A stretch of 64,000 nucleotides of DNA, taken from IMG/VR virus record IMGVR_UViG_3300037042_006844, positions 122,556 through 186,555 of that record; one strand, written 5' to 3'. Of this stretch, positions 16,681 to 54,894 are shown one piece after another. Under the pieces are notes generated by a model, which saw nothing but the letters and a program-made list of their open reading frames with translations, did no database searches and was not told the origin of the DNA. Made by a program: the position numbers and the translations under genes. Source of the stretch: a virus. How positions within the stretch are numbered: the first letter of the stretch is position 1; each line of letters begins with the position of its first letter.

Positions 16681-17145
16681 ATGATAATTATAAAAGACAA
16701 CTGCAACATTTTCGATGGTGGTGCTCAAGCCATCATTCATCAAGCCAACTGTTTCAACACGATGGGTAGTGGAATTGCCCGTCAGATTCGTGAACTCTAT
16801 CCAGAGGCGTATGCTGCGGATTGCATGACAGACCGAGGAGATCGGCGCAAGCTGGGTCATTTTAGCTGGACAAAGACCGGCGATGGTAAGTTTCACATCT
16901 ATAATTGCTATAGCCAATACGAATATGGCAGAGAACGTAGGCACACCAATTACGAAGCAATTTACACGGGGCTTACTGACATCAAAGCACACGCTGAGTC
17001 GCATGGTCTGACCACGTTGAGTCTGCCGCATATGATGGGTTGTATGTTGGGTGGCGGCAGTTGGAGAATTGTCGCTGCAATTATCGATGAGATTTTCTCC
17101 ACCGATCCAGAAACGGCGTTGTATATCTGCAAATACAATCCTTAA
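16681..17145 (+). CDS. macro domain protein (ADP-ribose binding or processing)
   Basis: GGAQAIIHQANCFNTMGSGIARQI matches the macro-domain glycine-rich motif. The ATG sits about 9 nt after a TTGACT…TATCTT promoter, so it is near-leaderless. The track's upstream start is a GTG. Confidence 0.65.
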   Translation: MIIIKDNCNIFDGGAQAIIHQANCFNTMGSGIARQIRELYPEAYAADCMTDRGDRRKLGHFSWTKTGDGKFHIYNCYSQYEYGRERRHTNYEAIYTGLTDIKAHAESHGLTTLSLPHMMGCMLGGGSWRIVAAIIDEIFSTDPETALYICKYNP

Positions 17146-17158
17146 AATAAAAAAACAT

Positions 17159-17509
17159 ATGAAAAATAGACCAGCAGTAGTTACGTTATTTGATAAAAAC
17201 CGATGGGACAGCTATAAAGAGCGTTCTTATCAACCGTTTAATTGTGAAACATGGCAGAGTCTATTACGTTCTGACTTAGCAATTAGTGTGGATTACATCA
17301 ACCAAACATTTACTGTGGTTAAAAATAGATATGGGTATTATGATAAAATCAAAAATGCTCCAATGAATTTGATGACCACGTTTATTTTCGATCCAGAATT
17401 GGATACGATGGAAAAACTTGGCAAATTTGGTCAGAAACCGTCAGACGTTGGTATTACTAATAATAATAAACCTCAACAAACACTATTTGCATGGGAGGCA
17501 CCGCATTGA
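17159..17509 (+). CDS. hypothetical protein
   Basis: Track ORF 17051..17509. The likely start is in AACATATGAAAAAT. Confidence 0.4.
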   Translation: MKNRPAVVTLFDKNRWDSYKERSYQPFNCETWQSLLRSDLAISVDYINQTFTVVKNRYGYYDKIKNAPMNLMTTFIFDPELDTMEKLGKFGQKPSDVGITNNNKPQQTLFAWEAPH

Positions 17510-18249
17510 ACACCACATTGGAACTTGGCACTTTCGTAAACACGGTCGCCGTAAAAAATCATCCATTCAAAAAACTGGTGGCACATCACAAATGCGCCAC
17601 TCCATTTGAATACATCATCGAAATTCTGCCAAAATGTAGTCCGACAGGACCGTGGATTGCTGGTGGGGCATTGTTACGCACATACACTGGACAGCCTCTT
17701 GACAGCGATGTTGATGTGTTTTTTCAAAACAAAGAGCAGTGTGATAGGTTCATCACCACCATTACAAGTGGTGCCTACGGTGGATCGATGGAAGATCGCA
17801 AGAAAAATCAATACACTGTGGAAACCCGGTTCAGCAACCAATGGCACACCACAATCACCATGAACTACATGGGTCGGGACTGGAAGATTCAGTGCATTAC
17901 ATTCGTGTTTTTTAAGACCATTAATGAATTGTTTGAATCATTTGATTTCGATGTGTGCATGATGGCATATGACGGTAATGAGTTGTATGTCAACAACACC
18001 ACATTTGATGCAATCGAAAACAAAATGGTTAAGTTGATGAAAATCAACTATCCCAGTATTACACTAAAACGACTTGTCAAATACATGCGTCAGGGGTATA
18101 ATGTTGATGACGCGGACGTTACAATGCTCGTCGCCAGTTTCCGAGGACCGAAGGAACCTGTTGGCATTATGGATGAAAGTGGTGAAAACGGAGGAAGGTG
18201 GGCAAAAATATCAAAAACCAACAATTGGTATATAAATTTGAGGCGATGA
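17491..18249 (+). CDS. Pol-beta-superfamily nucleotidyltransferase-like protein
   Basis: WIAGGALLRTYTGQPLDSDVDVFF fits the hG[GS]…[DE]h[DE]h nucleotidyltransferase signature and resembles the head domain of CCA-adding and MNT enzymes. Confidence 0.4.
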   Translation: MGGTALNTTLELGTFVNTVAVKNHPFKKLVAHHKCATPFEYIIEILPKCSPTGPWIAGGALLRTYTGQPLDSDVDVFFQNKEQCDRFITTITSGAYGGSMEDRKKNQYTVETRFSNQWHTTITMNYMGRDWKIQCITFVFFKTINELFESFDFDVCMMAYDGNELYVNNTTFDAIENKMVKLMKINYPSITLKRLVKYMRQGYNVDDADVTMLVASFRGPKEPVGIMDESGENGGRWAKISKTNNWYINLRR

Positions 18250-18262
18250 TTTAAGAAAATTT

Positions 18263-18502
18263 ATGAGCAAATATAAAACAAAAACGGCAATGGAAATCCG
18301 AATTGAACACTCCGAGTCTGAAGGACAGTATCTAAAAGTCTGTCAGGCAGACAATTGTATTGGTCTATATGCTATGAACTCGAAACATGATGGTTTAGTT
18401 TTGGGTTGTCTTGAGATCGATCCTGGCATGGCACCTATGCTAATCAAGGCGATTCAAAGAGTGGCGGACTGCATTAATGATAATAATGATAATAAGGAAT
18501 AA
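18263..18502 (+). CDS. hypothetical protein
   Basis: 79-aa ORF. Confidence 0.4.
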   Translation: MSKYKTKTAMEIRIEHSESEGQYLKVCQADNCIGLYAMNSKHDGLVLGCLEIDPGMAPMLIKAIQRVADCINDNNDNKE

Positions 18503-18567
18503 ATTATTATGAGTGTTGATTATACTAATAAAGTGGGGAGTATTGTGCTGGATATCTTAACAAACAT

Positions 18568-18810
18568 ATGACTGTAGGAAATTTAATTGAGTTATTGAAA
18601 GCGCAGGATCAGAACTTGCCTGTTATGGTTCGAGGATATGAGGCTGGCGTTGATGATGTAACTAGTATCCGTCGGATGAAAGTTGTATTAAATGCAAATA
18701 CCACCGAATGGTATTATGGAGATCATGAGCCTTATGATTTGAAGCAATTAGACATACCGGAAAATGCCGTGACAGCTTTGTTCTTACAAGGAGGTTCGGA
18801 GATCGTATGA
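18568..18810 (+). CDS. hypothetical protein
   Basis: 80-aa ORF starting at AACATATGACT. Confidence 0.4.
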   Translation: MTVGNLIELLKAQDQNLPVMVRGYEAGVDDVTSIRRMKVVLNANTTEWYYGDHEPYDLKQLDIPENAVTALFLQGGSEIV

Positions 18811-26130: not shown

Positions 26131-27237
26131 ATGAAGATAGACATTTCAGCAATTGACCGCTCACAATTTATGGTGCATGAGCATGTTGTGAACGGCGAGG
26201 TCGTTTATTTGGTTCACCCAAAAAATATGGGAGTAAAATGGACTAATGACAATATACATTTGAGATCGAGTATATGGGACAGCGATGGCAATTTGGTGAG
26301 TGCCAGCTTCAAAAAATTCACCAACTGGGGAGAGAATCCTGAGAATTTTCCTGTTCCAGAGTCGTTGCGAAACGCATGTGTTGTGGAGAAGCTCGACGGA
26401 AGCACTTTAATTGTCAGTAAGTATAAGGGCAATTATATTCTTAGAACCCGTGGAACCACAGATGCTGCCAAACTGGACAATGGTTATGAGTTGGAGCAGT
26501 TTAAGCAGACCATTTTGCCTAAACTGTTGGATGTTCATTTGGTTGCTGGAGATACGTGGAAGTATTCATTCTTGTTTGAGTGGGTCAGTCCCGTAAACAA
26601 AATTGTATTAAACTACGGAGATTCTCCAGACTGGTTTTTGATCGGTATCATTTATCATGGGGACTATTCTTTGATTGATCAACTTACGTTGGACAATTTA
26701 GCTTGGCAACATGGTTTGAAACGCCCAACTGTTTACAGCTTTCCAACCATTGAGCAATTATTGAAGGATGTTGATGCTTGGAAGCTCAAGGAGGGCGTGG
26801 TCGTTTACAGCAATCGTGATCAAATGCTGCACAAAGTCAAGGGGGCGTGGTATCTTGCATTGCACCACATGAAGAGCGAGTTGGCGAGTGTTGAGAAAGT
26901 GATGGATGTTTGGTTGGATCAAAACATGCCTACATACAATGCTTTTTATGATTACATTGCGACCACGTTCGATTTTGAGTTGGCAGAGCAGTGCCGTGGA
27001 ACCATCAGCAATCTTTGTGATGCTCGTAAAGAGGTTGATAAGATTGTTGCTGCGATGGCAGATTTCGTGGAGTCGAAAGTGCGTTGTCTGCCGTCACGCA
27101 AAGAGCAAGCACAGCTTGTATTGGGTTCTTATGGTAACACCAACCGTTCGGCGTATGTGTTCGCACTACTCGACGGCAAGACGCTAACTAAAGATCAATA
27201 CAAGAAATTGATGTTCCAAGTAATAATGAAAAAGTGA
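26131..27237 (+). CDS. rnlA: RNA ligase 1 (T4 RnlA/gp63 family)
   Basis: Motif I VVEKLDGSTLIVSKYKGNYILRTRGT (T4: LTKEDGSLVS…KSKGS). Also FKKFTNWGENPE, FLFEWVSPVNKIVLNY and EGVVVYS…HKVKGAWYLALH, which match T4 Rnl1 blocks. ATG at 26131; the track's upstream start lies inside the IS hairpin. Confidence 0.75.
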   Translation: MKIDISAIDRSQFMVHEHVVNGEVVYLVHPKNMGVKWTNDNIHLRSSIWDSDGNLVSASFKKFTNWGENPENFPVPESLRNACVVEKLDGSTLIVSKYKGNYILRTRGTTDAAKLDNGYELEQFKQTILPKLLDVHLVAGDTWKYSFLFEWVSPVNKIVLNYGDSPDWFLIGIIYHGDYSLIDQLTLDNLAWQHGLKRPTVYSFPTIEQLLKDVDAWKLKEGVVVYSNRDQMLHKVKGAWYLALHHMKSELASVEKVMDVWLDQNMPTYNAFYDYIATTFDFELAEQCRGTISNLCDARKEVDKIVAAMADFVESKVRCLPSRKEQAQLVLGSYGNTNRSAYVFALLDGKTLTKDQYKKLMFQVIMKK

Positions 27238-27245
27238 ACACAAAA

Positions 27246-27280
27246 CAAAAGCCCCACCGAGAAATTGGTGGGGCTTTTTT
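27246..27280. terminator. bidirectional terminator
   Basis: AAAAGCCCCACC…GGTGGGGCTTTTTTG between convergent genes. Confidence 0.55.
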
Positions 27281-29048: not shown

Positions 29049-29076
29049 TTGACTTTTTTTAACTTCGTGCTATTAT
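29049..29076 (+). promoter_or_regulatory. sigma70-like promoter (TTGACT-N16-TATTAT), ATG 7 nt downstream (leaderless)
   Basis: Read from the sequence. Confidence 0.45.
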
Positions 29077-29316: not shown

Positions 29317-29356
29317 CGGTTGACAATCAGCGAGTGTGTGCTATGATATAACACAT

Positions 29357-29818
29357 ATGGCGACACTATTTTTAACAGTTGGCTTACCCGGAAGCGGCAA
29401 GAGCACATGGGCAAAGCGATTCATTGCGAATCACGCGGAGCCTATCACCTATTTGAGCAGTGATGAACTCCGAGCCAGATTTGGAACGGGTGAAGAGGAC
29501 CAAACAGTTACTCCGCAGGTTTTTTCACATATTCGTCAAGAAATTGGGAATTTATTGAAAAACGGCAAAAACGTGATGGTGGATGCGACCAACGTCAACC
29601 GCAAAGACCGCATAGATTCGATTCGCATCGCAAAAAAGTATGGTGCCAGAGTGACCGCATTTGTATTTGAAATGAATCGTGCGGGATTGATCAAGAGAAA
29701 CGCCGACAGAGGCAAGCAGGGCGGTCGAGTTGTTCCAGACTGGGTCATCGACAAAATGCTTGCCAAGTATGAAGCTCCCTCCAATGCCGAGGGAATTGAT
29801 GATATTGTTTATGTTTGA
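29357..29818 (+). CDS. pnk: polynucleotide 5'-kinase (T4 Pnk kinase-domain homologue with no HAD phosphatase domain)
   Basis: LTVGLPGSGKSTWAKRFIA (T4: LTIGCPGSGKSTWAREFIA), VDATNVNRKDR and VPDWVIDKMLAKY. Start at ACACATATGGCG. Confidence 0.7.
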   Translation: MATLFLTVGLPGSGKSTWAKRFIANHAEPITYLSSDELRARFGTGEEDQTVTPQVFSHIRQEIGNLLKNGKNVMVDATNVNRKDRIDSIRIAKKYGARVTAFVFEMNRAGLIKRNADRGKQGGRVVPDWVIDKMLAKYEAPSNAEGIDDIVYV

Positions 29819-30455
29819 AAGACCTTTGAAACTACGGCACGGTGCCGAGCAGAATGTGTTTTTCACATCTGATACGCATTTCAACCACAACAAGGAGTTT
29901 ATTTACAAAAGTCGTGGATACATCGACCGGTATGAACACAACGATGCATTGATCACCAAAATCAATGAGCGCGTTCATGCTCAGGACGTATTGTTTCATC
30001 TGGGCGATTTTTGTTTGAATATCACTCCTCCAGAATTCCAGACAATTATCAGCCGTATCAACTGCCAGAATATTTACTATATCTGGGGCAACCACAACAG
30101 TTGTATTCGTAAGTATTATGAGGATGCCGTTCTCCAGAAGTTGAACGCGGCAATTGAAATGTATCCATACACGGTGGGTAACATCACCTTTTTGGGCGAC
30201 TACAAAGAAATCATTGTCAATGGGCAATTGATTGTGCTGCATCATTATCCTCACGATATTTTCAACCAGCAGCAAAACGGTGCTTGGCAGCTTAGTGGAC
30301 ATAGCCATTACACCAACCAAAAAACTCAAATCGACTATTTGGAAAAGAAAAGCTTGGATGTGGGCTGGGATGGTCACGGCAAGCCTTTGAGCTTTGACGA
30401 AATTTATAGAATTATGAGCACGAAAACCAACGTGCGAACCGACGATCATCACTAA
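29811..30455 (+). CDS. calcineurin-like metallophosphoesterase, a candidate 2',3'/3'-phosphatase partner of Pnk
   Basis: VFFTSDTHFNH, LGDF and WGNHNS motifs. The ATG overlaps the pnk stop (ATGTTTGA). Confidence 0.6.
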   Translation: MFERPLKLRHGAEQNVFFTSDTHFNHNKEFIYKSRGYIDRYEHNDALITKINERVHAQDVLFHLGDFCLNITPPEFQTIISRINCQNIYYIWGNHNSCIRKYYEDAVLQKLNAAIEMYPYTVGNITFLGDYKEIIVNGQLIVLHHYPHDIFNQQQNGAWQLSGHSHYTNQKTQIDYLEKKSLDVGWDGHGKPLSFDEIYRIMSTKTNVRTDDHH

Positions 30456-30661: not shown

Positions 30662-30685
30662 CAATTCGAGAGATCGTGCTATTTT
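30658..30685 (+). promoter_or_regulatory. sigma70-like promoter (TTGACA-N16-TATTTT), ATG 7 nt downstream
   Basis: Read from the sequence. Confidence 0.45.
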
Positions 30686-40158: not shown

Positions 40159-41556
40159 ATGAATAAAAACATCTGTTTAACTACTGACAGCTACAAGCTA
40201 AACCATTGGAATCAATACCCTCGTAACACCGAGATTGTGTATAGTTATTTCGAGTGTCGCAAAGGAGCAACCTTCGCCGAAACCCCGTTCTTCGGGCTTC
40301 AATACATTATTAAAAGCCACCTTGAGGGCGCAGTCGTGACCAGGGAGAATATTGAGAAGGCAGCTAGGCTTTGCAAATTCCATTTTGGCGACGAGCGTTA
40401 CTTCAACCGTGAGGGCTGGGAATACATCCTCAATAATTGGGGAGGTAAACTTCCAGTCGTTATCAAGGCTGTTGAGGAGGGAACTGTGGTTCCGGTCAAC
40501 AACGTGTTGATGACCATTGAGAATGTGGGCGGTGCCATGACGGCTTGGCTCACCAATTTCCTTGAGACGATTTTGTCCCAAGTATGGTATCCCACAACCG
40601 TTGCAGCTTTGAGCCGTGAGGTCAAAAAGAATATCAAAGAATATCTTGATTTAACCAGTGAGGGCGGACTGCTCAATTTCGGACTGCATGATTTTGGGTT
40701 CCGGGGGGCATCGTCTTGGGAATCTGCTGGTATTGGTGGTGCGGCTCATCTAATCAACTTCCTTGGCACCGATACTTTGGTCGCGATGGAGGTCGCCATG
40801 AACTATTACAATGCAAACCTCGAAGGATTAGCATACAGTGTGGCAGCAACCGAGCACAGTGTGATGACTGCTTTGGGCAAGGACGGTGAGGAAACGGTCG
40901 TCGAGAATCTGCTCAATGAATATCCCACGGGTATTCTTTCTGTGGTCTCCGATAGCTACGACATCTACAATTTTGTTAACAACATCGTTGGACGCAAATT
41001 TAAGGATTGGATTCTTGAGCGTGATGGTGTGTTCGTGGTTAGACCAGATTCCATTACTCCGAGCCATCCAACTCCTGAGCAGGAAATGGTTTGGATTATG
41101 TGGAGTCTTTGGGACAATTTTGGTGGCATTATAAACAGCAAGGGATTTAATGTTATCAATCCCAAGGTTCGTGTTCTTTGGGGCGATGGAATCGATTTGG
41201 AAGGTATCAAAAAGATTCTGTGTGCTGTTGCCGATGCTGGATTTGCAACCGAAAATATCGCATGTTTCGGAATGGGTGGCGGACTCTTACAGAAAGTCAA
41301 TCGTGATACACAGCGTTGTGCATTCAAATCGTCTGCACAGTATCGCAACGGTCAGTGGTTTGATATTTTCAAGAGTCCCAAGGATATTTCCAAGGCTTCC
41401 AAAAAGGGCAAGCTCAAGCTCACCAAGATTGACGGCAAGTTCGTTACTGTTGGTGAAAACGATCCCGGTGAGGATTATTTGAAGGTTGTGTTTACGAATG
41501 GTGTGCTGGTCAAGGAAATTGACTTTGCAACCGTTCGCAAGAACGCTGCTCTATGA
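40159..41556 (+). CDS. nicotinamide phosphoribosyltransferase family protein (NAMPT/NadV; possibly the Namat of a NARP1 pathway)
   Basis: Full-length match to the NAMPT family: LTTDSYKLNHW, VYSYFECR, FGLQY, KAVEEGTVVP, HDFGFRGASS, GTDT, EHS, VVSDSYDIYN, RPDSI, GDGID, FGMGGGLLQKVNRDTQRCAFK and EIDFATVRKNAAL. Confidence 0.85.
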   Translation: MNKNICLTTDSYKLNHWNQYPRNTEIVYSYFECRKGATFAETPFFGLQYIIKSHLEGAVVTRENIEKAARLCKFHFGDERYFNREGWEYILNNWGGKLPVVIKAVEEGTVVPVNNVLMTIENVGGAMTAWLTNFLETILSQVWYPTTVAALSREVKKNIKEYLDLTSEGGLLNFGLHDFGFRGASSWESAGIGGAAHLINFLGTDTLVAMEVAMNYYNANLEGLAYSVAATEHSVMTALGKDGEETVVENLLNEYPTGILSVVSDSYDIYNFVNNIVGRKFKDWILERDGVFVVRPDSITPSHPTPEQEMVWIMWSLWDNFGGIINSKGFNVINPKVRVLWGDGIDLEGIKKILCAVADAGFATENIACFGMGGGLLQKVNRDTQRCAFKSSAQYRNGQWFDIFKSPKDISKASKKGKLKLTKIDGKFVTVGENDPGEDYLKVVFTNGVLVKEIDFATVRKNAAL

Positions 41557-41613
41557 ACTACCCACCCGCTAAAGCAGGCGGGTTTTCTGCTCCCACAAAG
41601 ATAAAATTGTGAA
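41551..41613. mobile_element. apparent tnpB-less miniature derivative of IS-2 (right-end hairpin fused to left-end sequence)
   Basis: 41551-41587 (CTATGAACTACCCACCCGCTAAAGCAGGCGGGTTTTC) matches 60849-60885 at the IS-2 tnpB 3' end in 35 of 37 positions. The next stretch TCTGCTCCCACAAAGATAAAATTGTG matches TCTGCTCCCTCAAAGATAAATATAGTG at 62133-62158, beyond the tnpB start. The NAMPT stop codon lies inside the element. Confidence 0.4.
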
Positions 41614-41661
41614 AATGGTCGGAATTCCTCCCCTTAGGGGTTTCCTTCCTCCAAAACTATG
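41614..41661 (+). repeat. conserved 5' leader element, copy 2
   Basis: AATGGTCGGAATTCCTCC-CCTTAGGGG-TTTCCTTCCTCCAAAACTATG. The stem differs from copy 1 but remains self-complementary. Confidence 0.55.
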
Positions 41662-41677
41662 AAATGGATTAATCCCC

Positions 41678-41705
41678 TTGACTTCTATAAAATCTGTGGT
41701 ATACT
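41678..41705 (+). promoter_or_regulatory. sigma70-like promoter (TTGACT-N16-TATACTTTAG)
   Basis: Near-identical -10 region and downstream sequence to the helicase promoter. ATG 7 nt downstream. Confidence 0.5.
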
Positions 41706-41711
41706 TTAGAT

Positions 41712-41846
41712 ATGAGTGAATATAAAATAAAAACTGTCGTTAATATAGAGTTGGAAAAGGATCATGTTACTGTTGTGGTGTGTGAAAAAGCAGGGTATTT
41801 AGTTCATTATTTCTCATTCGACAATTCGATGGTCATTACTTGGTGA
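41712..41846 (+). CDS. leaderless small ORF of 44 aa (MSEYKIKTVVNIELEKDHVTVVVCEKAGYLVHYFSFDNSMVITW), not in the ORF track
   Basis: ATG 7 nt after the -10 box. Stop TGA at 41844-46. Too short to appear in the supplied track. Confidence 0.3.
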   Translation: MSEYKIKTVVNIELEKDHVTVVVCEKAGYLVHYFSFDNSMVITW

Positions 41847-41858
41847 AAACATAAACGT

Positions 41859-42407
41859 ATGATAAAACTCAAATTACAACAGTGTTTGTGGATCAATCTG
41901 GCGTTTCCAGAATCATCCAAACTGCAACAGCGTGGTATTGCCGACAAGATTGAATCCGACTGCGTTGACATTATCAAAGCAAATTTCACCAATGTAAAAG
42001 CTGCTCGCAGTCGCAGAAGCATTGAAGATGTCACGGTGGAAGGTTGTTATGTTGACATCAAAACCAGCGATGAAGTTTTAATGTTCAAAATGCCCAACTT
42101 GATCAGCATTGATCGGCTTCACAAGTTGGATAAACCACTGTTCTATGTGTTTGTTACCTATAACAGCATCAACAAAGTTATTCTCGACATTAAAGTGATG
42201 AACGTCTATGAATTGAACTGGAGCCAATTGCATATCCAAAATTTGGGTGTGGGACAGCTTCAAATCAAAAACATGTCGAGATTCATGAAAGCTGGTCCCA
42301 GCGCGATGAATGAGCAAACGTGGAAAAACACATTGAAACAACAAGCGGTTCTTTTCTACGACAAGCTGATCAAAAAAACAGAAATTCGTAAAAATAAATG
42401 GTCGTAA
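41859..42407 (+). CDS. hypothetical protein between the NAMPT-family and PRPS-family genes
   Basis: 182-aa ORF. Contains EGCYVDIKTSDE, which resembles a PD-(D/E)xK core, but this is only weakly supported. Confidence 0.45.
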   Translation: MIKLKLQQCLWINLAFPESSKLQQRGIADKIESDCVDIIKANFTNVKAARSRRSIEDVTVEGCYVDIKTSDEVLMFKMPNLISIDRLHKLDKPLFYVFVTYNSINKVILDIKVMNVYELNWSQLHIQNLGVGQLQIKNMSRFMKAGPSAMNEQTWKNTLKQQAVLFYDKLIKKTEIRKNKWS

Positions 42408-42422
42408 TAATATAAAATCACT

Positions 42423-43403
42423 ATGAACGTGAACACTCTAAAGTTATTTGCGGGAACCAGCAACGTTCCACTTGCTGAACGTATAGCTTCCAATTTTTTG
42501 AACTCCAAACTCGGCGATATTTTTCACCACAAATTTCCCAGCGGAGAAACATATTGCCAATTTCGTGAGAATATTCGTGGGTGTGATGTGTTTTTGATTC
42601 AAAGCATCACTGCTCCCGCCAACGAAAATTTGATGGAATTGTTGGTGATGGCGGATGCTGCTAGACGCGCCAGTGCAGACCGCATTACTGCAATCATTCC
42701 CTATTTTGGCTATGCCAGACAAGATAGAAAAGAGAAAAGCAGGGTGCCGATCACTGCCAAGCTCGTTTTGGACTTGATCGAAGCGAGCGGAATTGACCGT
42801 GTGGTAACTATGGATTTGCACAGTCCACAGGTCAGTGGCTTCACCAACCTTCCGTTCGACCATCTGACCTTTGAACCCGTATTGAACAATTGGATTAGAA
42901 ACAAATACCATAGTTTGGCTTTGCGAGACAGTGTTATTTTGATGGCACCCGATGTTGGAGCCGTCAAACGTGTGGAAAAATACGCAACCACGCTTGGCAC
43001 TGACTTTGGATTCATCAGCAAAAAGCGTGTGGGTGATGATACGGTTGAATTGCAAAGCATTGTTGGTGACGTGGCTGACAAGCACGTTGTTATCATCGAT
43101 GATCTGACCGAGAGTTGCGGAACCATGATTCAAGCTGCCAAGGCTTGCAAACACAATGGAGCCAAAAATGTGACATGTGCGGTGACTCATGGAGCTTTCA
43201 CGAATATTGGTGTGGAACGTTTGTGTGAAACATCCAGCATCGATCATTTGGTTCACAGCAACACAGTGAATCATGCATGGGACACAAACATGGATATGTG
43301 CAAAGACCCTCGCAGCATCACACAGCTTGATGTCAGCATGTTGTTTGCCAAAGCAATCAGCAGCATTCACAACAACGAAAGCATCAGTGAATTATTTGTA
43401 TGA
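42423..43403 (+). CDS. ribose-phosphate pyrophosphokinase family protein (PRPS, or the ADPR pyrophosphokinase Adps of a NARP1 pathway)
   Basis: PRPS architecture: N-terminal domain, VVTMDLHSPQVSGFTNLPFDHL (flexible loop) and VVIIDDLTESCGTMIQAAK (PRPP-binding loop). The latter deviates from the canonical DDMIDTAGT. Confidence 0.8.
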   Translation: MNVNTLKLFAGTSNVPLAERIASNFLNSKLGDIFHHKFPSGETYCQFRENIRGCDVFLIQSITAPANENLMELLVMADAARRASADRITAIIPYFGYARQDRKEKSRVPITAKLVLDLIEASGIDRVVTMDLHSPQVSGFTNLPFDHLTFEPVLNNWIRNKYHSLALRDSVILMAPDVGAVKRVEKYATTLGTDFGFISKKRVGDDTVELQSIVGDVADKHVVIIDDLTESCGTMIQAAKACKHNGAKNVTCAVTHGAFTNIGVERLCETSSIDHLVHSNTVNHAWDTNMDMCKDPRSITQLDVSMLFAKAISSIHNNESISELFV

Positions 43404-43657: not shown

Positions 43658-43732
43658 GGGGTCTAAGCTTTAATGGTGAAGCAAGCGGCTTTTAACCGCT
43701 AGAAGACGGATCGTTACCGTCAGGCCCTACCA
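43658..43732 (+). tRNA. tRNA-Lys (anticodon UUU)
   Basis: Manual fold. Acceptor stem GGGGTCT/AGGCCCT with G1-U72 and U5-G68 wobble pairs. D arm GCTT-TAATGGTG-AAGC. Anticodon stem-loop AGCGG-CTTTTAA-CCGCT. T arm GACGG-ATCGTTA-CCGTC. ACCA encoded. Confidence 0.65.
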
Positions 43733-43748
43733 AATTTACAGTTAAAAT

Positions 43749-43824
43749 GGGGTTATCGTCTAATGGCTAGGACGGGAGACTTTCAATCTCCAAATCGTGG
43801 GTTCAATTCCCCGTAGCCCTACCA
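43749..43824 (+). tRNA. tRNA-Glu (anticodon UUC), with a T stem that pairs poorly
   Basis: Acceptor stem GGGGTTA/TAGCCCT (with wobbles). D arm GTCT…GGAC. Anticodon stem-loop GGAGA-CTTTCAA-TCTCC. T loop TTCAATT. ACCA encoded. Only 3 bp of the T stem pair in my fold. Confidence 0.45.
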
Positions 43825-44154
43825 TTTTCACTGTCAGGTCAATAATGACAGACCGTTAGCAATAAGCGGTGTCAATGTGCAAAAAAATTCAAGTGGTATA
43901 GCACATCTGACGTTATAGATTCCACTTGATGGTGGAGGGGCGCGGAATAGCCCCCTAGACAAACAGATTGACGGATTGATATAATCGAAGGATATTATAT
44001 CTAATGCAACAGATAAATCCGATATAATGGTTTGTCGAGAGTTTGACATAACTCTACAACAACATATGTCTGGTTGCGGGGATGAGCCAATGGTGTCTCG
44101 GTTATCCGATTGGATCGAGATTCAATAACCCTACAATCGGACCAATTTTATAAT

Positions 44155-44231
44155 TGCGGAATAGAGTTCTGGTGAACTCCGGTGTCTCATAAGCACTCGC
44201 TAGAAAAGTTCGATTCTTTTTTCCGCTACCA
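44155..44231 (+). tRNA. tRNA with anticodon CAU (Met or Ile2 type); mismatch at positions 1:72
   Basis: D arm GAGT-TCTGGTGA-ACTC. Anticodon stem-loop GGTGT-CTCATAA-GCACT, with G-U pairs. T arm AAAAG-TTCGATT-CTTTT. Acceptor 3' strand TTCCGCT plus ACCA. Confidence 0.5.
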
Positions 44232-44236
44232 ATTTC

Positions 44237-44330
44237 GGTTCTGTAGTTTAACTGGTAAAACCCCATACTTATAATATGGTAATCGCTAGATGTGCGTGAC
44301 TTCTCGGTTCGAATCCGAGCAGAACCACCA
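44237..44330 (+). tRNA. class II tRNA with a long variable arm and an apparent UAU anticodon
   Basis: Acceptor stem GGTTCTG/CAGAACC plus A and CCA. D arm GTTT-AACTGGTA-AAAC. Anticodon stem-loop CCATA-CTTATAA-TATGG. Variable arm of about 23 nt with a CGC/GCG stem. T arm CTCGG-TTCGAAT-CCGAG. Confidence 0.55.
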
Positions 44331-44394
44331 AATTTATGACGAACGTGTCATAAAAAAACAAAGTTACATTGAATTAATACTAATATAATAGAAT

Positions 44395-44721
44395 ATGAAA
44401 AAGATACTTCTAACAGTTGCAACCCTCTCTCTTCTTTTGACCGCTAGTGCGGTTGATACCAAGGAACTCTACGATTCACAATGCTCCAAGTGTCATGGAA
44501 CAAATGGCAATGGTGTGACCAAGATGGGTCAAAAGCTCAATGCGAAGGATTGGACCGATGTCAAGATTCAAGCCGCAATGACCGAGACCAACATGGTCAA
44601 GGCAATTAAGGTGGGCATTAAAGATGCCGAGGACAAGACTCGCATGAAGGCATATTCAGATATGACTGATGCCGATGTGACGAATTTGGTTACGTATATC
44701 AAAACCTTCAAAAAGCAATAA
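44395..44721 (+). CDS. small secreted c-type cytochrome
   Basis: Signal peptide and a single CSKCH haem-binding motif (CxxCH). Confidence 0.65.
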   Translation: MKKILLTVATLSLLLTASAVDTKELYDSQCSKCHGTNGNGVTKMGQKLNAKDWTDVKIQAAMTETNMVKAIKVGIKDAEDKTRMKAYSDMTDADVTNLVTYIKTFKKQ

Positions 44722-44739
44722 CATCGTATATAACATCGT

Positions 44740-45069
44740 ATGAAGAAATCATTGATGCTCGGGGTTTTGATTCTCAGCGGAATGTTGTGTCAAGCACAAA
44801 ACGCTGGAACCAACGAATTGTATAACAGCAAGTGCAGCAAGTGCCATGCAAAAGATGGCTCGGGCAACACACTGATGGGCAAAAAGTATAGTGCGAAAAA
44901 CTATACAGATGCAGCCGTCCAAAACAAGCTTACTGATGAAGCTTTTGATAAGTCCCTCAAAGAGGGTTACACCGATGCCGAAGGCAAGAAAGTAATGCAG
45001 GCTTTTCCAGAGCTTACGGCACTGGAGCGCAAGGAACTCATCAAAACGATGCGGTCCTTCAAGAAATAA
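44740..45069 (+). CDS. small secreted c-type cytochrome, a paralogue
   Basis: Signal peptide and LYNSKCSKCHAKDG. Paralogous to 44395..44721. Confidence 0.65.
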   Translation: MKKSLMLGVLILSGMLCQAQNAGTNELYNSKCSKCHAKDGSGNTLMGKKYSAKNYTDAAVQNKLTDEAFDKSLKEGYTDAEGKKVMQAFPELTALERKELIKTMRSFKK

Positions 45070-45088
45070 GATTGACATATCAATTTAT

Positions 45089-45161
45089 GCGGAATTAGTG
45101 TCATGAGGAGCACGGCTATCGACCAGATAGCAAGGTTGGTGCAAGTCCAAATTCCGCTCCA
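45089..45161 (+). tRNA. degenerate tRNA-like element with G at position 33, an ACC anticodon loop and a 4-bp T stem; possibly a pseudo-tRNA
   Basis: Acceptor stem GCGGAAT/ATTCCGC plus U and CCA. D arm GTGT…GCAC. Anticodon stem-loop GCTAT-CGACCAG-ATAGC. T arm TTGG-TGCAAGT-CCAA. Confidence 0.3.
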
Positions 45162-45169
45162 CTTTTTCA

Positions 45170-45245
45170 GGGCTCTTAGCTTAATTGGTTAAGCAGCAAA
45201 CTCATAATTTGTTGAGTGGGGGTTCGAGTCCCTCAGGGCCCACCA
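45170..45245 (+). tRNA. tRNA-Met (anticodon CAU)
   Basis: Acceptor stem GGGCTCT/AGGGCCC (with U-G). D arm GCTT-AATTGGTTA-AAGC. Anticodon stem-loop GCAAA-CTCATAA-TTTGT. T arm GGGGG-TTCGAGT-CCCTC. Discriminator A plus CCA. Confidence 0.7.
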
Positions 45246-50544: not shown

Positions 50545-51090
50545 ATGAATGTCCACGATCACCTAAAGCCGTTAACGGTAACGGAGATCAAAACTTATTA
50601 TCAGTCAAACACGATACCAGCAGCATCAGCCATGATGCACGTAACTGGGGATTTCAATCTGTCCACGTTGATTCGTAACAGCAACTTTTTTGGTTATGAG
50701 AAGGTATACTATGTGGGCGGTAGCAAGCAGTATGATCGTCGTGGCACCGTTGGAACACACAATTACGTCGATGTTAACTTCATCAAGACCGAAGAGGAGT
50801 TCGTCAAGGTTATGCGTGAGGATGGTTATAAGATAATTGCAATTGAAAACAACATAGAGCATCCATCCGACAGTTTTTTTAAGTTTTTCGATGCAATCCA
50901 AAACGTTGCTGAATTTGGCAAGCCCATCTTCATTTTTGGCGAAGAACAGCGCGGTCTCAGTGATTATATGCTGTATAACAGTGACCACATTTTGTTTATA
51001 CCAGGTAATGGGACCGTGCGCAGTCTGAACGTGGGGACTGCCAGTGGCATAGTTTTGTCATATTATTACGCCCGTTATTTTATGAAATAG
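50545..51090 (+). CDS. SpoU/TrmH-family (SPOUT) RNA 2'-O-methyltransferase
   Basis: IIAIENNIEHP, PIFIFGEEQRGLS and FIPGNGTVRSLNVGTASGIVLSYY match SPOUT motifs I-III. Confidence 0.65.
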   Translation: MNVHDHLKPLTVTEIKTYYQSNTIPAASAMMHVTGDFNLSTLIRNSNFFGYEKVYYVGGSKQYDRRGTVGTHNYVDVNFIKTEEEFVKVMREDGYKIIAIENNIEHPSDSFFKFFDAIQNVAEFGKPIFIFGEEQRGLSDYMLYNSDHILFIPGNGTVRSLNVGTASGIVLSYYYARYFMK

Positions 51091-51200
51091 CTCAGGGGGT
51101 GGTGTTGATTTTTATAGTTGACACCCGCCCATCTATGATCTATGATCCATTTATGCAGAACACAAACAAAAAATTTGACAAAGACCCGATTGGTTCCAGA

Positions 51201-52046
51201 ATGAAATCTTCTTACGAGGATCGGACTAGATATTGTCTGCCTCGTAGAACATACACCATTTTGCGTCTCGATGGCAAATCGTTTCATTTTTACACCCAAG
51301 ACCTCGACAAACCTTTTGATGCGGGTTTTATCGAAGACATGAATCGAGCCGTTGTCAACACGATTCATGAAATTTCACAAGGTGTTGCTTTTGCCTACGC
51401 ACAGTCTGACGAAATTTCAATTCTGCTCACCGATTTTGAGAATGATCAAACAGATGCTTGGTTTGGTGGCAATATTCAAAAAATGAGTAGTGTTGCTGCC
51501 AGCATTATGACTGCTCAATTCAACCGTTTCAGACATATTAGACATTACAACCAAGTTCTTGGGACTTTGAATTTGGCAGACCCAACAATTGCTGCGGATG
51601 TGAATGCAAAAAATCGACTGTCGCCAATTTGGCTGCCGTATTTTGATTGCCGAGCGTTTACCATTCCCGACAGAACCGAAGTTATGAATTATTTTCGGTG
51701 GAGGCAGCAGGATTGCATTCGCAACAGTTTGAGCATGGTCGCACAAAGCATGTTCAGTCACGGCGAATTACAGAATAAAAGCCAAATTGACATGCACGAA
51801 ATGTTGCACCAAAAAGGTGTGAACTGGGCAACCGATTATACCGCTGCCCAGAAGAACGGTAGAATTTTTGTGAAAGAAACCAAACCGACTGAACATATGA
51901 GCAATGTGATAAGTTGGGAGGCTGATATGGCGAACTACAAAGTGGTTCCGGTTCCAACGCACATCGTAAAATGGCAAGCCAATGAAGCTTGGGTCTTTAG
52001 CAAAGACGAAGGCAAACTGCTTGACATGATTCCTAAATATGCATAA
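51201..52046 (+). CDS. Thg1-like protein (tRNA-His guanylyltransferase / 3'-5' polymerase family)
   Basis: TYTILRLDGKSFHFYTQDLDKPFDAGFIEDMNRAVVNTIHEISQGVAFAYAQSDEISILL aligns with the Thg1 core (RVDGRAFHKFS…KPND…DIVLAYGQSDEYSF). Start placed at MKSSYED, by analogy with the Thg1 N-terminus; the track ORF starts at 51099. Confidence 0.7.
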   Translation: MKSSYEDRTRYCLPRRTYTILRLDGKSFHFYTQDLDKPFDAGFIEDMNRAVVNTIHEISQGVAFAYAQSDEISILLTDFENDQTDAWFGGNIQKMSSVAASIMTAQFNRFRHIRHYNQVLGTLNLADPTIAADVNAKNRLSPIWLPYFDCRAFTIPDRTEVMNYFRWRQQDCIRNSLSMVAQSMFSHGELQNKSQIDMHEMLHQKGVNWATDYTAAQKNGRIFVKETKPTEHMSNVISWEADMANYKVVPVPTHIVKWQANEAWVFSKDEGKLLDMIPKYA

Positions 52047-52648: not shown

Positions 52649-53212
52649 ATGGCTATACAAATACCATCACCAAAAGACCGCAATCTGATGTTCGCCGCGA
52701 ACGTCAATAATACCAGCATTGCTGAACTAACCAAAGCATTGATAGATATCAGCAACGACGACATTTATATCGGAAAGCTCTATGCCCTTCATGGACTGGC
52801 ATACACACCACAACCCATCAAAATTCACATCGATAGTTATGGCGGTCAAGTATATCAATGCCTTGGACTATTGAGCATAATGAAAAATTGCGCAACGCCG
52901 ATTCACACAATCGTTACTGGCTGCGCCATGAGTTGTGGATTTATGATCAGTATCAGTGGCCACAAACGGTTTGGACACAAACACTCCACGTTTATGTATC
53001 ATCAAATCAGCAGTCTCCAAGGCGGCAAACTCAAAGATTTGGAGGAAGATATTATTGAGGCAAAACGGTTGCAGCACATCATTGAACAGCACACGATGGA
53101 GCAAACCAAAATTTCTCAGATCAGACTGACCGAGAGCTATGAAAAGAAAGAAGATTGGTATATGAATGCCAAACAAGCACTCAAATTGGGAGTGATTGAC
53201 GACATTCTATGA
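52649..53212 (+). CDS. clpP: ClpP-family serine protease
   Basis: IHIDSYGGQV and the catalytic-Ser context GCAMSCGFMI, followed by MYHQ containing the catalytic His. Confidence 0.75.
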   Translation: MAIQIPSPKDRNLMFAANVNNTSIAELTKALIDISNDDIYIGKLYALHGLAYTPQPIKIHIDSYGGQVYQCLGLLSIMKNCATPIHTIVTGCAMSCGFMISISGHKRFGHKHSTFMYHQISSLQGGKLKDLEEDIIEAKRLQHIIEQHTMEQTKISQIRLTESYEKKEDWYMNAKQALKLGVIDDIL

Positions 53213-53374
53213 GACGGGAGCTACGCAAAGATATGTTTAATTGGTTGACATTGGAGTTTGGTCTTGAAAGAATACTATTAATAGTGATTACATCTTGCTT
53301 CGTTTTCGTTCCTTTGGGGATTTGGAAAATGATAGAGATCATAATCTGGCTATGGCACCACCACAACATTCACC

Positions 53375-53620
53375 TCACCGTCGGCTAAACACAGATGACC
53401 AAGCATTATTGCTACCTACATAATACTTACCATTAATTTTGTTCACTATTTTGTATATTCCGCTTATTTTCCCAGTATCGTCGCATGGATTTTTCGTTAA
53501 GCAGTTGTTTGTGTTTTTGATAATATCGTTTGCCTCTGTTGCGTTGTTGTTCAAGCAACTCTTCTCTGGTTCTATTGAGTTTTTTTCTTCCCATAATATT
53601 TTTTCGTTTGTTGTTGACAT
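53375..53620 (-). pseudogene. N-terminal GIY-YIG nuclease fragment, a homing-endonuclease remnant
   Basis: GIYKIVNKINGKYYVGS is the GIY-YIG motif. The ORF stops after about 80 aa with no downstream domain. Confidence 0.35.
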
Positions 53621-53680
53621 AGTGTGATGTAGCCTCTATACTATAAGTAGAATGTTGGAGAATAAAACGTCAAAGAATTT

Positions 53681-53926
53681 ATGTCTTGGTTTGTATATTT
53701 AGTGATAACTTCAAAAAACACATTGTATTGCGGTTATACTATCAACATTGAGAAACGTGTTGCCACGCACAATGCTGGTCGTGGTGCTAAATACACACAA
53801 AAGCGATTGCCTGTGAAACTGGTTTATTCAGAAGAATTCGCAACTAAAACCGAAGCGATGCAACGTGAATATGCCATTAAACAGATGAGTCGCAGTGAAA
53901 AATTGAAATTGATAAAAAACACATGA
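53681..53926 (+). CDS. small GIY-YIG nuclease-superfamily protein (YhbQ/UPF0213-like)
   Basis: WFVYLVITSKNTLYCGYTINIEKRVATHNAGRGAKYT…REYAIKQMSRSEKLKLI parallels E. coli YhbQ. Confidence 0.6.
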   Translation: MSWFVYLVITSKNTLYCGYTINIEKRVATHNAGRGAKYTQKRLPVKLVYSEEFATKTEAMQREYAIKQMSRSEKLKLIKNT

Positions 53927-54282
53927 ACCGATTTTTGTGCAGATGTAAAAATCTGGCAACGTGGCAATATATGCCATCTTCGAGCAATCCAGATTACGAC
54001 TATTTTTGCGAGCTTTGCGTTCCCCGTGGATGCAGTTGCAACAACCATCACATTGAGGATGGTGATAACATTGCCGAGGGAGATGTTTTTGAGCATCCAG
54101 AAGAAGATGGAAGCTGGAAATGGCTGATCGAAAATGTTGAATGGTGCTACATAGATTCACAAGGTAGAGAACTGCCTTGCATCGAATTCTGGCATGAACC
54201 GGAAGGGTTCGATGCCAATGAAGAAACCATCGAACATTACAAAAAGCACAATATCAAATACTTCACAACAGACGAAGAATAA
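53923..54282 (+). CDS. hypothetical Cys-rich protein
   Basis: 119-aa ORF. Confidence 0.4.
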   Translation: MNRFLCRCKNLATWQYMPSSSNPDYDYFCELCVPRGCSCNNHHIEDGDNIAEGDVFEHPEEDGSWKWLIENVEWCYIDSQGRELPCIEFWHEPEGFDANEETIEHYKKHNIKYFTTDEE

Positions 54283-54288
54283 TAATCT

Positions 54289-54894
54289 ATGCATACATCA
54301 ACACAAAAATTGATTAGATGGAGTGAGGAATTGGGAGTTGATCAACTAGCCAAAGTTGTGCTGGAATCTCCCAGATTCGACATTTGGAGTGGTAGCAGCA
54401 AACCAACGCAGCATCACTATGGCAAACATGGTTTGACCATTCATACACACGAAGTGGTCAACCTTTGTATGGAAATTCCACATACATTATGCGTTCAAGT
54501 CAACACAATCGAACTGTTTTTGTCTGCGGTGTTTCACGATTGCGGTAAAATGTTTGATTATAAACCAGCACGGGGAGATTTTGCTGGATCTATTGATTAC
54601 AATAATTGGGTCGGAACTGATCACAAACGGCTGATTCATCATGTTAGTCGATCAGCATTGATTTGGCAGACTGCATGGGACAATGCTGTATCAAACAACA
54701 TTTGTGACCGAGACCCAGAATTGGTGGATCGTGTATTGCACAACATATTGTCGCATCATGGTCAGCGTCAGTGGGGTAGTCCAGTGATGCCAAAAACCAA
54801 AGAAGCATGGCTTTTGCATTTGTGTGACGGCATCAGTGCTCGTATGAACGATGCCGATAAATGGGATTTTGTTGCAGATACACCGAAACTATAG
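54289..54894 (+). CDS. HD-domain phosphohydrolase
   Basis: His at IHTHE, HD motif at LSAVFHDCGK, downstream His and Asp at LSHHG and HLCD. Confidence 0.6.
   Translation: MHTSTQKLIRWSEELGVDQLAKVVLESPRFDIWSGSSKPTQHHYGKHGLTIHTHEVVNLCMEIPHTLCVQVNTIELFLSAVFHDCGKMFDYKPARGDFAGSIDYNNWVGTDHKRLIHHVSRSALIWQTAWDNAVSNNICDRDPELVDRVLHNILSHHGQRQWGSPVMPKTKEAWLLHLCDGISARMNDADKWDFVADTPKL

Follow-up and report, generated by a model that had tools for sequence, protein, structure and literature searches.

Do the genes for RNA end healing, RNA sealing and tRNA processing that lie dispersed through a large phage genome make up one repair machine, or do they belong to several systems? The question is raised by a 64,000-nt stretch of viral DNA, positions 122,556 to 186,555 of IMG/VR record IMGVR_UViG_3300037042_006844 (hereafter the window, by which the whole stretch is meant). 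A first-pass annotation, made from the sequence alone, had gathered eight of its genes into one expanded RNA repair system, namely those for a T4-type RNA ligase (Rnl1), a polynucleotide kinase (Pnk), an adjacent calcineurin-like phosphoesterase, a Thg1-like polymerase, a SpoU methyltransferase, a nucleotidyltransferase, a macro domain protein and an HD hydrolase. An open reading frame (ORF) check of the window recovered all eight at the positions assigned to them (Table 1), and the broad family calls stand. The single system survives in part. The Rnl1, kinase and phosphoesterase genes form a set to which the Thg1-like protein (TLP) is a plausible addition, but the nucleotidyltransferase, macro and HD proteins are better explained by functions outside it and the linkage of SpoU is weak. 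The reading that we favour, and hold to be reasonably probable, is a split-gene RNA healing-and-sealing module set within a mosaic of independent counter-defence genes rather than one integrated repair machine. As judged from sequence, the parts of this mosaic are predicted to be the healing-and-sealing genes together with the spare tRNAs, an NAD+ rescue pair of the NARP1-like type accompanied by a macro protein that is Adpp-like, and a Gad2-like protein.

Table 1. Position, strand and basis of assignment of the features discussed (coordinates are those of the window; roles are predicted)
Feature	Position	Strand	Basis or remark
Macro domain protein, probable ADP-ribose (ADPR)-1''-phosphate phosphatase (Adpp-like)	16681..17145	+	PF01661, phrog_335
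Pol-beta-type nucleotidyltransferase, Gad2 (Gabija anti-defence 2) family, 252 aa	17491..18249	+	PF26128 label, tblastn
Rnl1-family ATP-dependent RNA ligase (sealing step)	26131..27237	+	PF09511, phrog_562, 2C5U
Sigma-70-like promoter, TTGACA-16-TATGAT, TG extension	29320..29347	+	9 nt before kinase ATG; consensus match only
Standalone polynucleotide 5'-kinase domain (5' end healing)	29357..29818	+	AAA_33, phrog_505, 4JST, 1LTQ
Binuclear metallophosphoesterase (MPE), putative 2',3'-cyclic phosphodiesterase / 3'-phosphatase	29811..30455	+	phrog_547, metal motifs
NARP1-like NAD+ reconstitution pair	40159..43403	+	Namat/Nampt-family 40159-41556; Adps/Prs-family 42423-43403
Five tRNAs (Lys-UUU, Glu-UUC, Met-CAU, 94-nt 'Ile-UAU', Met-CAU), all with encoded CCA end	43658..45245	+	ARAGORN
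SpoU/TrmH-type RNA 2'-O-methyltransferase	50545..51090	+	PF00588; 110 nt upstream of TLP gene
TLP, 3'-5' nucleotidyltransferase, candidate tRNA 5'-end repair/maturation enzyme	51201..52046	+	
HD-domain protein, 201 aa, corresponding to the catalytic domain of 3'-5' exonuclease YhaM	54289..54894	+	PF01966, 9H3F
cREC (cyclic-phosphate-processing receiver) domain protein	62757..63305	-	PF20274

The ligase, kinase and phosphoesterase set

The kinase and phosphoesterase genes are adjacent. The kinase (153 aa) matches AAA_33 at 4e-27 and covers only positions 1-144 of the 295-position polynucleotide kinase profile phrog_505, which bears out the earlier call of a Pnk kinase homologue without a phosphatase domain. 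Its closest solved relative is the kinase of Clostridium thermocellum Pnkp (CthPnkp; 4JST, 8e-14), slightly better than T4 Pnk (1LTQ, 2e-11), and its P-loop GLPGSGKST (GxxGSGKST) and its SSDELR segment (SSDxxR), with the general-base Asp and an Arg, align with the CthPnk motifs. The HAD (DxDxT) 3'-phosphatase domain of T4-type Pnkp was not found in the protein, the alignment being limited to residues 3-133 of 1LTQ, and the kinase homologues of the same lineage are all 151-153 aa long. With TIGR04075, which describes the three-domain bacterial Pnkp, just the kinase segment aligns (positions 9-123 of 851; 71 bits, cutoff 750).

The end of the kinase gene and the beginning of the phosphoesterase gene share 8 nt, ATGTTTGA, at 29811-29818, as the first-pass annotation had noticed, and the arrangement predicts that the phosphoesterase is translationally coupled to the kinase. 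The calcineurin-like nature of the phosphoesterase is confirmed by its match to phrog_547 (2e-37) and by the invariant metal-binding motifs DxH, GD, GNH, H and GHxH, which are D21-x-H23, G65-D66, G93-N94-H95, H145 and G163-H164-x-H166 in an alignment of 11 sequences with identities of 29-41%. The protein matched no family of Pfam or NCBIfam at E<=0.01; among its close homologues, a few have been labelled PF12850 in precomputed assignments. Aquifex aq_1665 (1XM7, function unknown) was the sole sequence match and the best fold match. A phosphoesterase of the CthPnkp/lambda-phosphatase type was rejected, as neither sequence nor fold searches returned such a match; the protein is placed outside the CthPnkp subfamily because aq_1665, rather than the lambda-phosphatase-like domain, is its best structural match.

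The ligase is of the T4 Rnl1 type, as first proposed. It passes the family score of PF09511 with 36.8 bits (gathering cutoff 28.3), matches phrog_562 at 8e-35 across residues 37-366 and aligns with the T4 Rnl1 structure 2C5U at 3e-7. Motifs I (KxDG), III (FE), IV (EGxV) and V (KxK) are all present in the latter alignment, where the paired segments of the window protein and T4 Rnl1 read eKlDGs/tKeDGs, FEwv/FEfv, EGvV/EGyV and KvKgawY/KiKsdwY. For the C-terminal part, where a tRNA-specificity domain would lie, phrog_562 is covered to position 365 of 377, and the alignment to the PDB structure ends at residue 290. The longest ORF of the gene starts with a TTG at 26080, and a terminator-like hairpin lies 3' of the gene at 27247-27278. 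A second ligase, of the Rnl2 type, was not found with local hidden Markov models (HMMs) over the window.

Are the three genes linked in other phages as well? We picked IMG/VR loci by similarity to the phosphoesterase alone (28-40% identity), and a Pnk and/or Rnl1 gene stood beside the phosphoesterase gene in nine of the ten loci with readable flanks. A wider, alignment-based scan with the phosphoesterase returned the same 13 loci again and yielded one usable peptide pattern. The gene order is TLP-Pnk-MPE with nearly no spacing in locus L008, and TLP-Rnl1...MPE in locus L005. In locus L009 (IMGVR_UViG_3300012979_001247, 994-2019), a Pnk-like kinase at the N-terminus and an aq_1665-type MPE at the C-terminus are joined in one protein of 341 aa. 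An iterated MPE HMM drifted to other metallophosphoesterases, and the adjacency claims therefore use the seed HMM.

The phosphoesterase family is present in 1244 cultured phage records. Ten phages were sampled evenly down this list and the neighbours of the phosphoesterase gene were checked by HMM. In six of them, from six taxa, Rnl1, an "ATPase" of about 135 aa that is recognised by the kinase HMM, and the phosphoesterase are encoded within about 2.5 kb: Klebsiella phage FKP3 (Stephanstirmvirinae), Vibrio phage AG74 (Demerecviridae), Pseudomonas phage PT07 (Pakpunavirus), Ralstonia phage RSP15 (Ackermannviridae), Escherichia phage ECP2303 (Vequintavirinae) and Acinetobacter phage B09_Aci05 (Saclayvirus). 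Rnl1 and kinase neighbours were not seen in the other four sampled phages, Cellulophaga phi17:2_18, Enterococcus ZJGS2, Staphylococcus V1SC04 and Vibrio D257. The Pnk-MPE fusion, the translational coupling and the recurrence of the trio across lineages are together good evidence that the three proteins work together. That Rnl1, the kinase and the adjacent phosphoesterase constitute a split healing-and-sealing set, as the first-pass annotation had supposed, is thus a well supported prediction from conserved neighbourhoods and one fusion.

Two deposited names in RSP15 are probably mis-annotations that hide the trio. ORF097 (L119 3540-4502) is deposited as 'metallophosphoesterase', yet it matches the Rnl1 HMM at 7e-57; ORF098 (L119 3029-3574) is deposited as 'NEDD4-binding protein', yet it matches the kinase HMM at 1e-26. 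In the window itself, two full-length TnpB (IS605 OrfB / Cas12f-like) genes occur at 24855-26051 (-) and 60856-62058 (-), together with a fragment at 22424-22795 (-). One full copy lies immediately upstream of the Rnl1 gene in divergent orientation, and the other adjoins the cREC gene. A protein of the SPFH/Band 7 type is encoded at 31560-32489 (+), between the phosphoesterase gene and a gene for a DNA ligase.

The Thg1-like protein, its neighbours and the tRNAs

Then, does the TLP belong with the trio? Its identity, correctly recognised from the start, is established by PF04446 (1.6e-25; 89.9 bits, cutoff 29.2), by phrog_4717 (3e-66) and by its best solved relative, the 5'-repair TLP of Bacillus thuringiensis (BtTLP; 4KGK, 9e-37). 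The catalytic carboxylates are conserved, with D24 and S69-D70-E71 invariant; compared with BtTLP, the window protein contains an insertion of about 27 residues and extends further at the C-terminus. Among cultured phages, 161 records contain a TLP gene. In mycobacteriophage Yeet the gene lies two genes from Pnkp, and the order in Xanthomonas phage XacN1 is TLP-rIIA-rIIB-RNA ligase.

We also scanned 80 metagenomic TLP loci with local HMMs. An RNA ligase or Pnk gene was near the TLP gene in 15 of the 80 loci within 10 kb and in 12 within 3 kb, counts for which there was no matched control; tRNA genes, 189 in total, lay within 10 kb in 26 of the 80. An MPE or macro gene stood directly beside the TLP gene in L082, L095 and L081. 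When all window proteins were compared by tblastn with the same loci, the commonest neighbours were NAMPT and phosphoribosyl pyrophosphate (PRPP) synthetase, not the ligase or the kinase. The linkage of the TLP to repair genes is real but moderate, and a role of the TLP as an accessory that rebuilds or matures tRNA 5' ends appears plausible.

The family of the SpoU protein is clear from PF00588 (5.5e-22; 78.8 bits, cutoff 29.7), and its nearest relatives are the TrmH Gm18 enzymes (7EDC, 2e-6; NCBIfam TrmH, 2e-11); all NCBIfam equivalogs (TrmH G18, TrmL 34, TrmJ 32, RlmB) score far below cutoff, the best being TrmH with 43.9 against 227. A SpoU gene lies close to the TLP gene only in the close relatives L014 and L017. 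The protein is found in 11 cultured phage records, and in Rhodococcus phage NiceHouse its gene lies 1.1 kb from a small "RNA ligase" gene and from a PRPP-transferase/NAMPT-like pair. Both the family and the position next to the TLP gene had thus been assigned correctly, but the linkage to repair is weak and membership of SpoU in the repair set is uncertain.

Exactly five tRNAs were reported by ARAGORN, four of them also by Rfam at gathering score, in agreement with the earlier count of at least five. The cluster possibly supplies spare tRNAs, repair substrates or both. The tRNA-Met(CAU) at 44155-44231 (+), the one not reported by Rfam, has a U1.U72 mismatch atop its acceptor stem and is initiator-like, a feature shared by a tRNA-Met of a related phage contig (L026, 1910-1985). 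The 'tRNA-Ile(UAU)' at 44237-44330 (+) measures 94 nt and has discriminator A73 and a long variable arm of the class II type, which is unusual for an isoleucine tRNA. Tandem cytochrome c genes (44395-44721 and 44740-45069, both +) are found inside the cluster, between the fourth and the fifth tRNA. A YopX protein and a ClpP-like protease are encoded just downstream of the TLP gene, at 52039-52446 and 52649-53212 (+).

The TLP and SpoU might serve only the routine maturation of phage tRNAs, through G-1 addition or 5' proofreading and Gm18-type methylation, and not the repair of damage. The many tRNA genes near TLP genes in the metagenomic loci, with the window cluster 6 kb off, would be in line with such a role, as would the kinship of SpoU with TrmH Gm18 enzymes, the annotation of the Rhodococcus phage homologue as a tRNA methyltransferase and the moderate extent of the linkage of TLP to ligase and kinase genes. 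However, tRNA-His was not found in the window, and the acceptor stems show two G1.U72 wobbles (Lys, Glu) and, the initiator-like tRNA-Met aside, no mismatch clearly needing editing. In addition, the TLP gene lies directly within the Pnk/MPE/Rnl operons of L005 and L008. We regard maturation without repair as possible, though doubtful. A more specific candidate role, that of the TLP as a 5' editor of mismatched phage tRNAs, was dropped as unsupported; the sole true 1:72 mismatch is in the initiator-like tRNA-Met, and the G1.U72 frequencies are uncontrolled.

Proposed substrates of the module and the genes outside it

How might the healing-and-sealing proteins act together? The sequences show the enzyme families; which substrates are used, and in what order the steps follow, is proposed by analogy with the chemistry of T4 Pnkp/Rnl1 and CthPnkp and from the gene linkage. 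In the most economical mechanism, the P-loop polynucleotide kinase would phosphorylate 5'-OH ends, the coupled binuclear metallophosphoesterase would clear 2',3'-cyclic or 3'-phosphate ends, and Rnl1, encoded 2.1 kb upstream, would seal the break. For the phosphoesterase, the action on such RNA ends is predicted from its linkage to Pnk and Rnl1, the sole basis for this assignment. The TLP would rebuild or mature tRNA 5' ends, further accessories may be the cREC protein and, less certainly, the TrmH-like 2'-O-methyltransferase, and the five phage tRNAs, Lys-UUU and Glu-UUC among them, could replace damaged host tRNAs. The purpose of the module would likely be counter-defence, by reversal of the tRNA cleavage that host abortive-infection ribonucleases inflict.

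The cREC gene was absent from the first-pass list. Its product matches PF20274 at 8e-19 (68.5 bits, cutoff 27), and in phage ECP2303 a cREC-like ORF abuts the Rnl1 gene. Published predictions for this domain are an action on RNA ends that bear cyclic phosphates and an association with RNA ligases (PMC7824862, PMC9503650), and the window protein is possibly an extra candidate for RNA 3'-end processing. A 318-aa Metallophos protein at 56720-57676 (-), behind a consensus promoter at 57826-57798, could be a second end-healing phosphatase. Among the PHROG profiles it matches best, though weakly, phrog_8238, which has 737 positions and is annotated 'RNA ligase'. The match lies in the phosphatase segment of that profile, and the window kinase in turn matches the N-terminal 141 positions; we keep the 318-aa protein as a weak lead only, because no PDB match was found for it. 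Another metallophosphoesterase, of 407 aa (54861-56084, +), whose start overlaps the end of the HD gene, is similar to plant and fungal purple acid phosphatases (1XZW, 8e-8) and was discarded as a repair candidate on account of this similarity.

The macro protein matches PF01661 at 6e-8 and phrog_335, a profile annotated 'phosphatase', at 1e-41, and its family is found in 2678 phage records. Its closest phage relative with an informative gene context is gp177 of Vibrio phage AG74 (37% identity, E 4e-24), which is located between Adps and Namat. The macro gene of the related Vibrio phage Gary encodes an ADPR-1''-phosphate phosphatase (Adpp), which lets the NARP1 pathway overcome aRES defence. 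The window also has a pair of genes of the Namat/Nampt and Adps/Prs families with the Pfam signatures used to define NARP1, PF18127 + PF04095 in the former and PF13793 + PF14572 + PF00156 in the latter. On account of the AG74 operon and of this pair, we place the macro protein in NAD+ reconstitution rather than in RNA repair, likely as an Adpp-like enzyme serving the NARP1-like pair. The ADPR-1''-phosphate phosphatase chemistry named in the first-pass annotation is therefore kept, and the repair context assigned to it is not.

With the NARP1-AP arrangement (Adps, Adpp macro phosphatase, Namat) the window thus shares genes of both families and a macro protein related to that of the AG74 operon. 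It differs in the distance of the macro gene, in the assignment of Namat/Nampt and Adps/Prs at family level and in the splitting of the pair by a 182-aa ORF (41859-42407, +) without Pfam or PHROG match. This ORF fills the slot where some phages have the macro phosphatase. The operational definition of Adpp, a position within two genes of Adps/Namat, does not apply to the window macro gene. The Namat/Adps pair adjoins the Rnl1, kinase and MPE genes in AG74, PT07 and B09_Aci05, and it is probably a counter-defence module in its own right, one that accompanies the repair genes in other phages. Upstream of the macro and Gad2-like genes, after a methyltransferase gene, two adjacent ORFs of about 280 aa (14353-15198 and 15224-16075, both +) have faint matches to glycosyltransferase family 2.

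The nucleotidyltransferase is of the Pol-beta type, as had been recognised, but the RNA-repair role is not supported, as the protein is a homologue of validated Gad2. In precomputed Pfam assignments, it and all of its homologues are labelled PF26128 'Gad2', and by tblastn (5e-6) it matches Gad2 genes that are annotated in Bacillus phages SPbetaL7 and SPbetaL6 and have been validated by experiment, the match to SPbetaL7 Gad2 covering residues 44-214. The nucleotidyltransferase core aligns with Gad2, and the motifs GG...DxD and FDFxVC are common to both and invariant. Identity to Gad2 is only 22-24%. An RlaP or CCA-adding RNA-end enzyme was rejected in view of the Gad2 matches and of a local scan in which the protein and its homologue P0008 matched no Pfam family at E<=1, the RlaP and CCA-enzyme families included. 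The protein is accordingly best described as a candidate anti-Gabija factor of the Gad2 family, outside RNA repair.

For the HD protein, the domain stands, and a linkage to repair was not found. The score against PF01966 is marginal (22.9 bits, cutoff 22), and the YhaM structure 9H3F is matched at 1.4e-11 over chain residues 136-286 of 321, in line with a match to positions 150-285 of 314 of the NCBIfam YhaM model. The protein corresponds to the C-terminal half of YhaM only; the N-terminal OB-fold nucleic-acid-binding domain was not found in it. No homologue of the HD protein was found in the fetched repair loci, nor did local HMMs over the window find a repair-type HD gene of the phrog_990 kind.

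Several observations weigh against the reading of a repair module within a mosaic of counter-defence genes. AlphaFold modelled the phosphoesterase with only moderate confidence (pLDDT, the predicted local distance difference test, 72), and the protein falls in a subfamily for which no function is known, not in that of lambda-phosphatase and CthPnkp. The linkage of TLP to ligase and kinase genes is modest, and its count is uncontrolled. The nearest PDB relatives of the macro protein are DarG and TARG1, a DarG/TARG1-like de-ADP-ribosylase being the alternative to an Adpp-like enzyme, and the macro gene (16.7 kb) is 23 kb from the Namat/Adps pair (40.2-43.4 kb). The nucleotidyltransferase lacks the C-terminal region of about 170 residues of Gad2 (252 versus 400 residues). 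Finally, a gene for an ATP-dependent DNA ligase lies at 32786-33940, 2.3 kb downstream of the kinase-phosphoesterase pair, and DNA ligase recurs in the same cassettes elsewhere; DNA ends could therefore be the substrate.

If so, the pair would convert 5'-OH/3'-phosphate nicks into ends that the nearby DNA ligase can join, for example after host nuclease attack or in phage DNA processing. T4 Pnkp acts on DNA and RNA. A DNA ligase gene is part of the same cassette in FKP3, PT07 and ECP2303 and is found in 11 of the 80 TLP loci, but it is Rnl1 rather than DNA ligase that accompanies the pair most constantly, and the nearest relative of the kinase, that of CthPnkp, acts in RNA repair. We consider the healing of DNA ends unlikely as an explanation of the pair, with the proviso that DNA and RNA roles are not mutually exclusive.

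The integrated system originally proposed, in which all eight genes handle 3' and 5' damage together, would require the nucleotidyltransferase to restore lost nucleotides, the macro protein to clear ADPR-1''-phosphate made during repair, and the HD protein to act as a second 3' phosphoesterase. We judge it quite improbable. The nucleotidyltransferase matches validated Gad2 and not the RlaP/CCA-enzyme families, even though Pol-beta nucleotidyltransferases are counted in the literature, together with phosphatases of the HD and calcineurin types, as components of RNA repair in phages. A KptA/Tpt1-type enzyme, the source of ADPR-1''-phosphate in repair, was not found among the window ORFs scanned, and the closest informative phage relative of the macro protein is inside an Adps-Namat operon; against this, a macro homologue abuts TLP in L081, a macro gene is within 10 kb of TLP in 10 of the 80 loci, and published neighbourhoods join Thg1, PNK, macro and RNA ligase. 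An HD gene does stand by the MPE gene in PT07 and RSP15, but it is of another family (phrog_990), and the window HD protein is without a homologue in the fetched repair loci. The eight genes are, moreover, dispersed across 38 kb and have separate promoter-like sites.

Little credence is given to a phosphoesterase whose targets are nucleotides or the small molecules of immune signalling (cyclic oligonucleotides, ADPR derivatives) in place of polynucleotide ends: phage calcineurin-like enzymes have been predicted to target cyclic nucleotide signals, the aq_1665 subfamily is without a known substrate and NAD+-related genes are frequent neighbours, but the protein shows translational coupling to a polynucleotide kinase, is part of a fusion with one in L009 and is consistently adjoined by Rnl1. 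A last and most improbable extension of the favoured module would combine the trio, the TLP and the TrmH-like SpoU into a three-stage pathway that heals and seals tRNAs, rebuilds their 5' ends and 2'-O-methylates them against recutting, as a conserved supermodule with the NAD+ reconstitution genes; if it were true, the logic of bacterial Pnkp/Hen1 would have been reached via unrelated enzymes, and one cassette would rescue both translation and NAD+ from abortive-infection effectors.

Relation to described systems and to the surrounding genes

The healing-and-sealing module resembles two systems of known chemistry. As in T4, where Pnkp and Rnl1 counter the anticodon nuclease PrrC, the window has an Rnl1 in which every nucleotidyltransferase motif is present and a P-loop 5'-kinase that is a homologue of the kinase domain of T4 Pnk, and the genes are non-contiguous in T4 and in the window alike. 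The window differs in having a separate metallophosphoesterase instead of the HAD 3'-phosphatase, and its Rnl1 reaches 65 bits with TIGR02308, the NCBIfam equivalog for T4 RnlA function, far under the cutoff of 242. With CthPnkp, which works with Hen1, the window shares the use of a kinase and a binuclear metallophosphoesterase for end healing, and the fusion protein of L009 is a natural counterpart to the joining of these two domains. However, the window has three separate genes with an Rnl1-type ligase rather than a Pnkp ligase domain, and its phosphoesterase is of the aq_1665 and not the lambda-phosphatase subfamily. Hen1 was not found among the window ORFs scanned.

At the level of gene neighbourhoods, Iyer et al. 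2022 (PMC9503650) described for phages of the Escherichia phage V5 type a T4-like tRNA ligase with cREC, a nucleotide kinase and an occasional calcineurin-like phosphoesterase. The jumbo-phage inventory of Iyer et al. 2021 (PMC7824862) lists ligases, PNK, HAD/calcineurin/HD phosphatases, RlaP, CCA enzyme, Thg1, cREC and tRNAs, and Anantharaman et al. 2010 (PMC2904730) reported Thg1-PNK-macro-RNA ligase neighbourhoods. The window has Rnl1, kinase, calcineurin-like phosphoesterase, cREC, Thg1, macro and tRNAs in common with these descriptions, and the V5-type cassette was seen directly in ECP2303, FKP3, AG74, PT07, RSP15 and B09_Aci05. The window departs from that cassette in that its parts extend over about 37 kb with TnpB elements and unrelated genes between them, its ligase is without an adjacent sirtuin or MazG, and a TrmH-like SpoU stands beside the TLP. 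The association of TLP with PNK, RNA ligase and macro genes recurs in the phage loci, as in the Thg1-PNK operons, whereas the window TLP is 21 kb from the kinase. The toolkit is thus already described in the comparative-genomics papers of 2010, 2021 and 2022; the window offers a further example, rather complete though dispersed, and adds no new principle.

No biochemical study of the Rnl1/kinase/phosphoesterase trio was found in the searchable literature. The trio is carried by many cultured phages of E. coli, Klebsiella, Pseudomonas, Vibrio, Acinetobacter and Ralstonia, where its members are annotated merely as "tail fibre attachment catalyst", "ATPase" and "phosphoesterase". If it is a working healing-and-sealing pathway, it would provide a substrate for a metallophosphoesterase subfamily of unknown function and lead to better annotation in many phage genomes, more than a thousand of them if just the phosphoesterase is counted. 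It would also allow a prediction of which therapeutic phages escape tRNA-cleaving defences.

What phage does the window come from? The window contains rIIA-like (816 aa) and rIIB-like (430 aa) genes and a gene for a separate 536-aa HATPase_c_3 protein (23117-24727 (+), 36007-39843 (+)). A nucleotide search of INPHARED with window positions 26-31 kb returned no matching deposited phage, and a kinase gene identical to that of the window is present on a contig of 303,564 bp. From the rII-like genes, the lack of a close deposited nucleotide relative and this contig, we conclude that the window is part of a very large genome, that of an uncultured jumbo phage. Its relatives are common in metagenomes.

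The promoter-like site upstream of the kinase gene is the best within 25.9-31.2 kb, matching at 11 of 12 positions, and another such site lies upstream of the TLP gene at 51118-51146. An exact TTGACA-N15-18-TATRAT occurs at only three sites in the window, upstream of the Pnk, TLP and 318-aa Metallophos genes. We dropped co-regulation of these three genes by consensus promoters because about 50 sites with at least 10 of 12 matches are distributed across the window, ahead of many unrelated genes. Many of the sigma-70-like matches end 7-10 nt before a start codon (594-621, 29049-29076, 29320-29347, 30658-30685, 32752-32779, 34774-34802 and, on the minus strand, 3105-3078). These short gaps suggest that a good share of the phage mRNAs may be leaderless or nearly so.

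Two further genes of the window may be mentioned. A 377-aa CoaD-CoaE fusion is encoded at 20434-21567 (+), with 162 bits for CoaD (cutoff 103) and 82 bits for CoaE (cutoff 66); the pantetheine-phosphate adenylyltransferase (CoaD) and dephospho-CoA kinase (CoaE) catalyze the final two steps of coenzyme A synthesis, which are here phage-encoded. The 899-aa protein at 57960-60659 (-) has four separate Methyltransf_24 matches, and a single-domain paralogue is encoded at 13752-14345.

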